DNA from: Macrostomum lignano
Lineage: Eukaryota
Direction: 5' to 3'
Assembly (NCBI GenBank): GCA_002269645.1
Contig: NIVC01000257.1
Coordinates: forward strand, 310,001-374,000
DNA length: 64,000 bases
Part shown: piece after piece, positions 3,201 to 8,046 of the stretch
Numbering within the stretch: the stretch's first letter is position 1
Layout: every line of letters starts with the position of its first letter
Notes under the pieces: generated by a model
What the model was told of the DNA's origin: nothing
Databases searched by the model: none
What the model saw: the letters and a program-made list of their open reading frames with translations, nothing else
Position numbers and translations under genes: made by a program

Positions 3201-6200
3201 CTGCCAGCCATCTCCAGGCTTGGCTGAGGACTGATCTCTCTGATGGAGACCTTTGTGTCATCCAATCTAATCATCTCTCTCCGCGTACGTGTCTCATTGC
3301 CTCGATTTACATCCCAGGCGACAGAGACCCTGCTCCCGAGAGTACTGCGAGTCCCAGAACGCTGAGCTGTGTTTAGGGGGCGACCTCAACGCACACCATA
3401 AGCACTGGGGCAGCAAAGACACCAATACTAGAGGGGAGGAGCTTCTAACCCTTATCTCTAACACAAACCTCATGCTCTGCAACCGCGGTAGCACTCCTAC
3501 CTTCAACAATGTGTAGTGATCCGCTAGTTGGTGTTAGGCGTCCCACTCTGTCAGCAGTCTCTCTCGCCCTTGCCCTGGGTTGCTGTCTGCCGCTGGTCAG
3601 CTTCCCGCCCCCTTGGCCCGTCTGTTGCTGCCCTTGGCCTGTTCTGCCCTTCGGCGTCTCTGTTCTCAGCCCTCAGCTTCTCTGCTGTGGGCTGTCTCTG
3701 TTTCGTTCCCGTCCCGTTTTCCTCTGTCATGTGAGCAAGTCATATGACAGACTCTGCGTTCTTCGAGTCCTAAAGTGCAGTAAACATGTTTACTGCACTC
3801 GTTGGCCCTGTTTACCGGGAGAATCACGTGCTTTCGGACCCCTCCCTTCTCTAAGGAGAGGAGTGACTCATGTTGCTAAAAATAGCAACTGAGTCACAGC
3901 CGCGTGTACTCTGGCCGGAGACCTCAAGTGACGTCAGTTCTAAAAATAGAACGAGTCACGAGGTCTTGCGCGCACTGAGACCCTGCCTCGAGATCTCAAG
4001 TGACGTCAGTTCTAAAAATAGAACAAGTCACGAGGTCTTGTGCGTGGGTGTTTCCCGGCTATAAATAGGACCCCTCTCCCCTTGTTTCCGTCAAGGTTTT
4101 GGCTTCTTATCTGCGGAGAATTCACTAAGAACCCGTGTGCGTCAGTGTCTAACTAAGTGCCCTTTGCGTACTGAATCCGTTTGTACTGGTCTGACTGAGA
4201 CCCCACTAAAGCCCAAGCCTAAGGGAGGCTAACACTGCCTTCCCAGTCACCCCTGAGCCCGGCGGGGATCTGCTGATCAGGACGCCTTGTTCATTAATCT
4301 GCAAATCTGCACGCTGTGCTGAGTTCGTTGACTTGTTTATTTCGTTCCGACGGGAAGCTCACCTCATCGAAGGCCGAGACCTGAAGGAACTGGTGGCAGC
4401 ACTACCTACGCTACTGAGAGAGTTAAGAAGGCTTCCGAGTGAGAAGACGGAGAGCCCAAGTCACTGCGCTGTACAGCAGGACAACCACAGGTACAACACT
4501 GGTGGCAGCGGTAGGATTCAAAGACCTACCAGGCCACCCCGAGAAAAACCATTCTATTTCACTGGTGGCAGCGGTGGGATTCAAAGACCTACCAGGCCAC
4601 CCCGAGAAAACCCCATCTATTTCAAATGGCAGATGGACTGAGGTCCTCGACGCCACACTCGTTACCCCAAGACTCTTTGACAGAGTTGAGGAGTGGAGAG
4701 TCGGGTCTGAGGAGCCCTCCCTGTCTGACCACTGCTTTATCGCCTTTAACATCGCGAACACTAAACCCCAGTACTCGATTACTTGGAGGCGTAACATCCG
4801 CAACACTGATTGGGCGGCCTATAAGGCTACCCTTGATCTGCACCTGCAGGAACTCACAGACTTACGTCCGATTGAGACCTGCGAGGATGTGGACCATGCG
4901 GCTGAGACGCTGACAGGTTGCATTATTGCAGCCTATGAGGCGGCCTGCCCTGTCCGTGCCTACAAAGGCAAGACCTCGGCGCCGTGGTGGAACCCGGAGC
5001 TGGGGAAACTCAGGCGGAAGGCCAAAAGCCTTCACCGCCGTGCCATGAAGACCGGAAACCCGGAGGACATGGAGCTTTTCCGACAAGCCTCCCGCAACTT
5101 CAAATCTGAAGTGCGCAAGGCCAAGGAATGTAAATGGCGCCAATTCTGCAATGAGTTGGATCAAGACAGACCTACTTCTAGGCTTTTCAAGGCCCTTACA
5201 ATGGACAAAATGTCCAAATTAGCCATGATCAGAAAAGATGATGGCTCTCTTACTAAAGACCCTGAAGAATTGCTTCAGCATATGCTCAGCACATTCTTCC
5301 CGAGGATACCCACTGCTGGATCGGAACCCAACCATTCAATGGATGGAGCTACCCTAGCGGCGGGCATTATCACTGAAGACTTAATCGCTCGTGCGGTCAG
5401 AACCTTCAAGCCCTTCAAATCTCCTGGACCTGATAGTATCTACACTGTTCTCCTTCGTGAAGCAGCCAAGATACCCCCGTTCTTGAGACTTACCCGCAAT
5501 CTCATGCGGGCCTCTATCCAGCTGGGATACGTTCCCAAGTGCTGGACCGAAGCTCGGGTAGTCTTTATTCCCAAACCTGGGAAGGGTGACTACCAGAGCG
5601 TCAAGGCCTTTAGGCCAATTAGCTTAACGTCAGCAATGCTTAAGCTCACTGAGAGGCTTATTCTCTGGCGGCTGCTTTCTTGCGAGCTGACAGCAATGCC
5701 TCTCAGCAATCATCAGCACGCCTTCCGTACCGGGAGGTCGACTGACAGCGCCCTGCATGCGATAGTCGAGAAGATTGAACGGGCGGTACTGGGTGACGGT
5801 TACGCCCTGGCTCTCTATCTCGACATTGTTGGCGCCTTCGACAACGTTATCTTTGAAGCGTTTCAAAATCGCAAAGCTCACGCTACCCTCATACGGTGGA
5901 TCATGTACATGATCTCTAACCGTACGGTCACTGCCCAACTTCTTGGGCAAACTGCCTCCGCCAGAGTCTGTAAGGGTGGACCCCAAGGCGGAGTCCTCAC
6001 CCCGACGCTCTGGAACCTGGTCATGGACGCTCTTCTGGGCGACTCCCGACCTGATCCCGTCTTCAAAGTCGGGTATGCTGACGACGTCACTGCCATTGTG
6101 GCTGGGCCGTCCTCCAGCACGTTCAGGGATCTGATGCAGAGTTTTATTCGCAAAGCAGAATCCTGGGCCAATGACAACGGTCTGGAACTCTGAGCCCAAA

Positions 6201-8046
6201 ACTGTTGCCATTATGTTCACCAGCAGAATACGCTGGAACATACGACCTCTGCAGCTTTACGGCGGAGATATTGCCTTCGCGCACCAGACCAGATGTCTAG
6301 GGGTCATACTTGACCACCGGCTCAACTGGCCCTTCCACGTGAAAGCAAAAGCCAAGCGTGCCTCAGCCATCCTGGCCCAGCTCCGACGAGCACTTGGCAC
6401 CTTTTGGGGTCTTTCCCCAAAGCGGCTTTGGTGGATCTACACTTCCGTAGTTAGACCTGCCATTACGTACGCCTCTGTTGTCTGGGTTAGCGCTACCCAG
6501 GTCAAAAGCCATGCAGATTTTCTCAACACGATCCAGGGCAGAGCGTGTAGGCTTATCTGCAACGCCACCAGGTCCACACCCTTTGCCGGCATGGGGGCCT
6601 TCCTTAATCTACCGCCTCTCGACCTCTTCGTCAGGGGTGAGGCAGCTAGAACGACGCGGCGTTTACTTGATGCCGGTGTCAAATTCCTTTACATGAGGGC
6701 ACCTGCTAAGCGGAACCTCGTCCCGCATAGCGACCTGTGCCTCAACTTTCTCAACGAGTGTCAGGCCAATCGCGTCTTCACCAATGGCATTGCCTCAAAG
6801 CTCAACCTGAGACAACGCTACCCCGTAGCTATCGACTCGCGCGATACCCTCAATGACCACTGGAACCCTGGTGAGCTTCATTGCTACACCGATGGTTCTA
6901 AGCAGTCAGCCAACACCGGTTTTGGTGCTGGAATCTTCCTGAACGGGAGGGTCATCGCAACCCACGCTCAGTACACTGGGGTCAACTGCAGTGTCTTCCA
7001 AAATGAAGTTCTCGCCATCAGCTCCTGCATCGCAGAGCTCCTCGCCACTGGCGTTACCGGTAAGAACATCATTTTCCATTCGGACAGCCAAGCTGCCTTG
7101 CACGCCATCAGTGGCTGCAGCACCAATTCTGCTACAGTCCTCGACTGTATCAAACTCCTCAACATGTTGGGCTCCACCAACAAAATCACCCTCAAGTGGG
7201 TTCCGGGGCATGTGGGGATCCGAGGAAATGAGTTGGCTGACGCCCTTGCGAAAGTTGGCGTTTCCGGCTCCTCTCTCGGTCCCGAACCCCTTGTCCCGAT
7301 TCCTGGCTGTGTCATCGACTCGCGCATCAAAGCGTGGATCAGGACCCAGCACCGCTCGACTTGGGCGAACTGCACTACCTGCAGGCAATCCAGAGGCGCT
7401 GTCCCTCAGCCCTCTCACCAGCTCCGGAAGCTCCTCTTGCGCCTCTCGCGCAGAGATATCCGGGCTGCCACCATGACCCTTTCTGGTCACGGCTGCTTCT
7501 CTAGGCACCAGTACCTGCAGGGCAACGCCACCAACGCCATCTGCAGTTTCTGTAACTCAGGTGACGAAACCGCTGAACATTTCGTCAGCATCTGTCCCGC
7601 CTTCACGCGGGCCAGACTCACTTACCTCGGGCCACACACATCTATTACTGAAGCGTGCAAACCCGAAAACTTAAACCAGCTCATGCGCTACCTCCGGGCC
7701 ACCCACAGGGCTGAACTCTCCTTTCCAGAGAGCACCATAGCTGCTGGCGACACTGGGGGACCTTCCTGGGCGGCGCCAACCCTTCGTCCATAGCGACGCG
7801 TCGGCCGTTCAGGGATTAGCGGAATGGGCGTTCGCGCCTTCCCGCTGTGTCCCCCCGGGACAGCCCTGCAGCTAAGTAAGTAAGTAAGTTGGATAGGGCA
7901 TCGGGGAGGGAATTCGGGAGAGTTGCACGGGGAATCGGGGAGGGAATTAGTGAGAGTTGGGGGAATCGCAGATATGATTGCTTACCGCATTCGAATATGG
8001 ATTTAATCTCGGGCAGAGCGGTGGTGCCCAGAGTCGAATAATTCAT
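288..8046 (-). CDS. Putative two-exon orphan single-pass membrane protein, 113 aa (exons 8046-7986 and 568-288); 7.4-kb intron hosts the LINE and LTR
   Basis: Exon 1 encodes MNYSTLGTTALPEIKSIFEC plus one G, followed by a GTAAG donor at 7985-7981. The acceptor ctcaacAG is at 570-569. G+TA gives Val, in frame with TRMRIAEDELIEG. A hydrophobic stretch FHLGGILSLAYILLLMLLLVIL is followed by an Ala/Glu-rich tail, with the stop at 288. No family recognised; further upstream exons cannot be excluded. Confidence 0.55.
589..961. repeat. Degenerate purine-rich minisatellite (gggagagttg/gggaatc units), left part; resumes at 7887-7970 after the LINE
   Basis: The same motif flanks both sides of the LINE. 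ORFs 580..984 and 679..999 are translations of this repeat. Confidence 0.8.
1475..2835 (+). pseudogene. LINE ORF1 remnant
   Basis: ORFs 1810..2235 and 2263..2835 are in the same frame, separated by a premature TAA at 2233-2235. ORF 1475..2002 is probably the frameshifted N-terminus. The position directly before the APE domain is typical of ORF1. Confidence 0.65.
2971..3511 (+). pseudogene. LINE ORF2, N-terminal part of the apurinic-like endonuclease (two frameshifts, then interrupted by the LTR)
   Basis: Motifs LQINLQHC, LIQEPW, PRAAIL, ASIYIP, GGDLNAHHKHWGS and CNRGSTPTF are spread over three frames (2971..3186, 3119..3376, 3289..3516). Confidence 0.88.
3863..4067 (+). promoter_or_regulatory. 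LTR U3 enhancer/promoter: 72-bp direct repeats with TGACGTCA sites, AP-1-like TGA(C/G)TCA sites and a TATA box
   Basis: TGACGTCA at 3929-3936 and 4001-4008 (72-bp period). tgactca and tgagtca near 3864 and 3890. TATAAATA at 4060-4067. Confidence 0.6.
4499..4624 (+). repeat. Two tandem 63-bp units, each C + tRNA-Leu-complementary PBS + hairpin + ...ATTTCA
   Basis: TGGTGGCAGCGGTAGGAT at 4500-4517 and TGGTGGCAGCGGTGGGAT at 4563-4580. The second is the reverse complement of the common tRNA-Leu 3' end ATCCCACCGCTGCCACCA. Confidence 0.85.
4629..7793 (+). pseudogene. LINE ORF2: end of endonuclease, reverse transcriptase, RNase H and C-terminal CCHC finger (frameshift near 6190)
   Basis: Endonuclease end SDHCFI. 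RT motifs KSPGPDSI, FRPISLTS, QHAFRTGRST, YLDIVGAFD, GPQGGVLTPTLWN and YADD. RNase H motifs YTDGSK, FQNEVLAI, SDSQAAL and WVPGHVGIRGNELADALAK. Zinc finger CSFC...HFVSIC. Confidence 0.93.

Follow-up and report, generated by a model that had tools for sequence, protein, structure and literature searches.

Can an LTR enclose the sites from which its own reverse transcription is primed and, if several such sites are present, which of them is used? This question was raised by a solo LTR located in the window, i.e. the whole stretch of 64,000 nucleotides analysed here, where two tandem units, each containing a primer-binding site (PBS) for tRNA-Leu, precede the right target-site duplication (TSD).

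The window LTR, its family and its relatives

The element extended from TG at 3512 to CA at 4624, displayed AATG on either side and had no internal region. It was inserted in a non-LTR retrotransposon, domains of which were recognised on both sides. In public contigs, position 3507 was joined to 4625 with four shared letters (4/4 sequencing runs); those covering the LTR stretch came from three runs presumed to be RNA and one run of unknown kind, and offered piecewise coverage devoid of start, end or strand information. The following features were distinguished:

3301..3510, + strand: endonuclease domain of the non-LTR retrotransposon hosting the insertion (Pfam PF14529)
3508..3511, + strand: left TSD, AATG, from the sequence and from public contigs across the insertion
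3512..4624, + strand: solo LTR of 1113 bp, TG...CA, of a tRNA-Leu-primed Ty3/gypsy family
4060..4065, + strand: TATA-like box, putative promoter, judged from sequence only
4391..4400, + strand: 10-nt PBS-like site (tRNA-Leu complement) without preceding CA, start of "module A" (4391-4498)
4479..4498, + strand: tail of the core LTR ending in CA, the true integration end in zero-unit copies
4499..4561, + strand: unit 1, with a 1-nt spacer, PBS 4500-4517 (one mismatch), loop, anti-PBS arms 4525-4530 and 4533-4538, and a variable tail ending in CA
4562..4624, + strand: unit 2, with a spacer, perfect PBS 4563-4580, arms 4588-4593 and 4596-4601, and a variable tail
4625..4628, + strand: right TSD, AATG, 4 bp, from the sequence
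4625-7790, + strand: RT and RNase H of the same host non-LTR retrotransposon (Pfam PF00078, PF00075)

The two 63-bp units (4499-4561 and 4562-4624) differed at four of 63 positions. As the TSD followed the second one (AATG at 4625-4628), both PBS copies lie inside the integrated LTR, in agreement with an earlier examination of the letters (hereafter the sequence-only reading). Both units are built alike: a single spacer nucleotide leads into the 18-nt PBS, a loop separates this PBS from the two arms that complement it, and a tail closes the unit with CA; the integration end of the window copy was the CA of unit 2. Two occurrences of the PBS 18-mer were found in the window, where 0.01 would be expected, and no tRNA gene was found there. 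Twelve host tRNA-Leu(AAG/TAG) genes matched the PBS of unit 2 over 20/20 nt and that of unit 1 over 19/20 nt, which settles the earlier concern that the 18-mer might correspond to no host tRNA 3' end. The proposed match of unit 2 to the common tRNA-Leu end was therefore retained. The special meaning attached to unit 1 was not: its variant is a single substitution belonging to a small lineage (5/78 units), and none of the 12 tRNA matches carried it although the pattern permitted it. Compared with the 5' LTR of a full-length relative that also has two units (C659), the window LTR displayed 21 differences, five of them in the last 12 nt.

A third site, overlooked in the sequence-only reading, was the 10-nt PBS-like site at 4391-4400; the placement of U5 and R in this family, including the position of this 10-mer relative to R, is putative. 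Several other Leu-primed LTR families (L203, L214, L215, L216 and L229) had a like tRNA-Leu 10-mer, matching at 9/10 positions in L229 and also without a preceding CA; it preceded the last PBS by 110-360 nt, the sequence diverging immediately after it. Further downstream, positions 8449-63992 of the window were packed with unrelated minisatellites having a period of 16-55 bp.

A search with the window LTR brought up 1098 candidates in the assembly (G000); 40 were scored. An anchor placed at the 10-mer and the 25-nt unit core were present in 389 and 236 exact copies, respectively. The family is a Ty3/gypsy LTR retrotransposon, as indicated by its TG...CA LTRs, TSD, PBS, PPT and protease-RT-RNase H-integrase order. 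The last three domains were found in this order in one copy (Pfam RVT_1, RT_RNaseH, Integrase_H2C2 and rve), and the protease upstream of RT was recognised by eye through its LLDSGS motif, with no Pfam match. The coding interior measured 7-8.4 kb, and 34 of the 35 evaluated LTR pairs displayed a matching 4-bp TSD. In some copies the pol frame continued for about 600 residues beyond the integrase region (L061:5900-7698), again with no Pfam match.

Solo LTRs were counted among the first 100 of the 389 anchor matches (93 after removal of duplicates): 21, 24 and five displayed zero, one and two units, respectively, according to a fuzzy pattern which scored L006, a two-unit LTR, as having one. Exact TSDs stood directly behind the last unit in 23 of the 29 unit-bearing solos from these 100 matches, and at the core end in 18 of the 21 zero-unit ones. 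All 24 5' ends found with an exact leader pattern displayed zero to four units followed by one further PBS. Such copy-number variation, together with the TSDs, argues against a local duplication and indicates that each type of inner CA serves as a genuine integration end in some member of the family. The modular cassettes of the sequence-only reading, each joining an integration end to a PBS, were thus recovered. LTRs with zero, one and two units exist as it had foreseen, with up to four units and the TSD behind the last, and so does the further PBS for which a check behind the last unit of full-length elements had been proposed. The opposite case, a one-off duplication in a family otherwise displaying a single outside PBS, was not what the genome contained.

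The TSDs of solo LTRs preferentially displayed A or T at positions two and three (45/50 and 40/50) and C or A at position one (40/50). Some insertions were found twice with identical junctions (L001, G000:C334; pairs such as L003/L004 and L015/L018/L012), one of them as a solo LTR in one place and as a full-length element in the other, pointing to segment duplications or to haplotypes within the assembly. An apparent enrichment of units in solo LTRs (29/50 against 3/18 5' LTRs, p 0.003) disappeared when 13/24 5' ends were taken for comparison (p 0.81).

The survey of other families covered the first 100 of 233 other PBS matches, from which 20 places were examined. Family B (C73) displayed 1330-bp LTRs and TSD TAAT, and family C (C35) LTRs of about 1007 bp and TSD TTAT; both contained several PBS-like modules within both LTRs. 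PBS-like modules were also present within both LTRs of a second family C copy (C215, TSD TATA), and their number differed from copy to copy in families B and C. For L197, L215 and L226 the 3' LTR was not found in the examined stretch. Pairwise RT domain identity to family A, that of the window, was 70.6 % for family B and 55.9 % for family C. The LTRs of families A and B aligned only at the unit (53 bp, 85 %, E 2e-12), which points to long conservation or to transfer between families. The stack arrangement is genuine, family-wide and present in at least three gypsy families.

Other Leu-primed elements were L216/L220 (C181), with LTRs longer than 1.7 kb, L207/L208 (C546) and L215/L221 (C839). 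Stretches tested for L220, L221 and L207 displayed no RT, RNase H or integrase match to family A, and all three pairs are possibly non-autonomous.

Choice among the primer sites

The primer site determines where both new LTRs end on the right. If an inner site were used, a shorter 3' LTR would be expected, the 5' side keeping its units. Both ends were compared in 35 elements (36 listed, C130 not evaluated) and in 14 of 20 more, the 3' LTR of the six others from this second set being not found in the examined stretch. A duplicate (C5151, the same as C224) and a tandem member (C2137) were left out of the paired count; the latter displayed no unit on the 5' side and one on the 3' side, and its left LTR was preceded by a PPT, hence its assignment to a tandem.

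Equal stacks were found in both LTRs of 19 of the 21 independent unit-bearing elements, including C2549, which had no testable TSD. The two others, C163 and C2478 (2/21, 95 % CI 1-30 %), lacked units in the 3' LTR but displayed one on the 5' side; their LTR cores differed by one and zero nt, respectively, and their TSD lay directly behind the core CA. This is the pattern expected from inner-site priming, though both could alternatively be deletions through 7- and 4-nt microhomology, and paired LTRs report integrated products only. The sequence-only reading had attributed LTRs with zero to two units to priming at alternative sites. Such priming may indeed take place occasionally (the two one-sided elements), but it cannot by itself alter the inherited unit number because the 5' side keeps its units; gains and losses would require template switching or unequal exchange.

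The last PBS was perfect in 11/31 5' ends and carried a 2-nt insertion in 19/31, and such bulged working sites often displayed a further mismatch (e.g. L031 and L141). Twelve elements combined a perfect inner PBS with a bulged last one, and 12/12 were symmetric, the perfect site having been bypassed. No host tRNA gene matched the PBS with the 2-nt bulge, of which 43 exact sites were found genome-wide. Persistence of the bulge indicates that copying from the tRNA often leaves the PBS uncorrected, and a similar result is known for Ty1. The notion that the PBS is re-copied at each cycle, on which the sequence-only reading relied, consequently fits this family poorly.

The hairpin in which each PBS pairs with its own downstream arms folded as previously described (unit 1, z -2.75; unit 2, z -1.49, alone not significant). 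Opening costs were predictions, computed from folds of short isolated stretches. They reached 18.9 and 18.6 kcal/mol for the PBSs of the two window units (0/200 and 11/200 shuffles as high), whereas the last PBS, taken in three forms, came to 10.8-13.9 kcal/mol, values which 91-148 of 200 shuffles attained. Predicted costs of inner and last PBS were 15.9 versus 10.5 in a divergent subfamily and 17.1 versus 13.4 in family B, which has the hairpin module in common with family A. In relatives, loops varied while arms stayed.

The putative hairpin masking of inner sites is supported by the predicted opening costs and by the 12 elements in which the bulged last PBS was used; the last site could also win simply through its position or RNA context. 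Masking failed as a general rule. Some related units were no better masked than shuffles (as high in 40/200 for L204, 90/200 for L205 and 123/200 for L202), and no masking was found in the computed folds of family C, whose inner sites were mostly mismatched and not folded. The earlier proposal that the hairpin gates priming thus agrees with the costs and site usage of the window family and does not extend to L202, L204, L205 or family C. Predicted folding of the inner sites in families A and B, or their decay in family C, suggests that they are kept from priming rather than needed.

Turnover of LTR ends and competing explanations

Modules were unevenly conserved. Over 78 units and 124 LTRs, the per-site difference was 0.042 in the PBS, 0.015 in the arm region, 0.275 in the 20-nt tail and 0.124 in the LTR core. 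The low diversity of unit heads could come from recent spread by exchange instead of selection. Neighbouring units mostly had unlike tails, identical neighbours being encountered in L085 and L046. Among 36 young LTRs, positions 1-879 varied by 0.4-1.8 %, unit heads by 0-6 % and module A past its first 20 columns by 17-47 %. Two core clades, which differed by 12-66 % over positions 551-850, each contained both module-A types (25/11 and 3/6), indicating that U5 ends were exchanged at or near the conserved zone holding the 10-mer. Unit number required 31 changes on a 93-leaf core tree (5' LTRs left out, set partly chosen by likeness to the window) versus a shuffled mean of 37.8.

Within single elements, the two LTRs of C199 differed at eight end positions versus three core positions, and those of C511 at ten versus two. 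We infer that template switching between repeated PBS heads, including heads on co-packaged RNAs, is the simplest cause of the exchange. A candidate "primer hopping", suggested by a mosaic of the last 8 nt, was not supported: all eight combinations of three variable sites occurred, but four-gamete and r2 values remained within the range of core sites. The four-gamete test gave no sign of tails being more mosaic than the core, where four gametes were present in 31 % of 396 close core pairs.

With a probability of roughly two in three, the U5 of this family is a stack of primer sites that are silenced, a stack which is dispensable and recombines; the last site would prime in about nine cases out of ten, and inner priming would be occasional. 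Inner sites would be former or captured primer sites, absorbed into U5 once a downstream site was used, and the hairpin would stop them from competing for the primer. An occasional inner priming event would shorten the 3' LTR only, and template switching would bring about unit gains, unit losses and tail swaps. The modules would then be dispensable passengers, kept quiet and usable as a fallback site, and not essential.

A more elaborate reading, which we consider unlikely, sees a selected switchboard of primer sites. Hairpin-gated U5 modules with a perfect PBS would be traded between families; as swap points they would diversify the integration end, they would serve as decoys or back-ups, and the working PBS would be bulged to dodge silencing by tRNA fragments.

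Decidedly unlikely is a neutral tandem duplication of the LTR end and PBS at the DNA level, through slippage or unequal crossing-over, with an incidental hairpin and later deletions in the one-sided elements. Units are dispensable, being absent from 42/93 tree LTRs, the genome is rich in tandem repeats, some arrays do have identical adjacent units (L085 and L046), and microhomology of 4-7 nt was present at both one-sided elements. Yet alignments of the unit with the present leader were weak past 20 nt, which speaks against its being a copy of that leader; those with the tRNA T-arm, expected of a fossil of read-through into this arm, were weak as well. In addition, adjacent units mostly carry different tails, and stacks are copied to both LTRs. 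Moreover, variability is lower in the head than in the core by a factor of about 3-8, and the head is the sole part of the LTR that aligns between families A and B.

An adaptive device directed against host small RNAs, or serving primer capture, appears doubtful to the same degree as neutral duplication. Folded perfect sites would act as decoys or tRNA stores, the working PBS being kept imperfect. The proportions of perfect and inserted last sites given above, the 43 bulged sites without a matching host gene, the mostly perfect inner sites and the recurrence of stacks in three families are in its favour. So is the repression of LTR elements by 3'-tRNA fragments acting through the PBS in mouse, reported in PMC12853362; that same study, however, indicates that a PBS with a two-nucleotide bulge is still repressed about two-fold. 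Many young full-length copies have no unit, a folded site makes a poor decoy, and family C lets its inner sites decay, all of which speak against such a device.

That an antisense transcript of the unit provides a self-encoded tRNA-like primer, as the sequence-only reading had imagined, is hardly credible: the antisense 39-mer has a stable predicted fold (z -4.96, unit 1) and a CCA end, but this CCA is base-paired in the stem with only the final A free, which rules out a tRNA minihelix with a free NCCA 3' end, any PBS read backwards matches a tRNA end by definition, host primers are available from the 12 matching tRNA-Leu genes, Rfam searches of 3400-4750 gave no tRNA-like match beyond a single sub-threshold chance match, and no signal defining an antisense 3' end was seen.

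Relation to known systems

Members of the window family resemble the canonical U5-PBS junction of Ty3/gypsy elements and retroviruses, as outlined in an excerpt of PMC10886601, in their TG...CA LTR, 4-bp TSD, 1-nt spacer, 18-nt complement of a tRNA 3' end, PPT ahead of the 3' LTR and PR-RT-RH-IN order. They differ in that the junction is repeated zero to four times in the LTR, inner copies having an anti-PBS arm.

The two PBSs of Drosophila gypsy and the bipartite or multipartite PBSs of Ty3 and Ty1 also provide more than one site for the primer tRNA, one being enough for cDNA synthesis; in that case the second site is carried by the 3' end of the RNA and pairs with another region of the tRNA (PMC1635307). 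In contrast, sites of the window family bind the same tRNA 3' end, are arranged in tandem in U5, each with an integration end, and vary in number. Affiliation with the bipartite or two-site class was therefore rejected, since the inner sites all correspond to this one tRNA 3' end and lie at the right end of the LTR. Frequent dual initiation was reportedly obtained by Voronin and Pathak with engineered two-PBS HIV vectors, to judge by the title of their 2004 study. The likeness resides in two sites per RNA, either able to start synthesis; those vectors are artificial and dual initiation is frequent, whereas the window family is natural and the last site was used in 19/21 integrated products.

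Helenus/TRIMp3 elements, as presented in part of PMC10886601, also have tRNA-related sequence in the LTR, and their animal members display 4-bp TSDs, with tRNA-Leu priming included. They are described there as non-coding, with a sense tRNA-like Pol III promoter that is not complementary to their own PBS. The window family, on the other hand, encodes pol and its LTR holds tRNA complements; its coding interior and the lack of a tRNA gene or Rfam tRNA match in the window set it apart from this group. The ta-TRIM elements of taeniid cestodes share tRNA-Leu priming and numerous solo LTRs; the part of PMC4558846 drawn on here reports an LTR of 198 bp with one 9-nt PBS lying outside it, and describes no stack. 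No natural tandem array of PBSs within an LTR was found in the literature searched, the coverage of which did not extend to subscription journals, Repbase reports and supplements.

Where the primer site defines the LTR end, stacked sites make each integrated copy a record of the site that was used. The family thereby allows the choice of primer site, and exchange among co-packaged RNAs, to be read from natural copies; to our knowledge both have so far been approached mainly with engineered vectors. Perfect hidden sites next to a bulged working site also make evasion of tRNA fragments by the PBS testable outside mammals. Annotation tools presuming one PBS just outside the LTR would miscall LTR ends of this kind and take solo LTRs for truncated elements.

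A tRNA-Leu complement was also encountered as a satellite: a 28-bp repeat closely resembling the complement of the final 28 nt of tRNA-Leu gave 74 pattern matches in L199 (G000:C393:300500-306000) and 29 in L200 (G000:C928:16000-21000).
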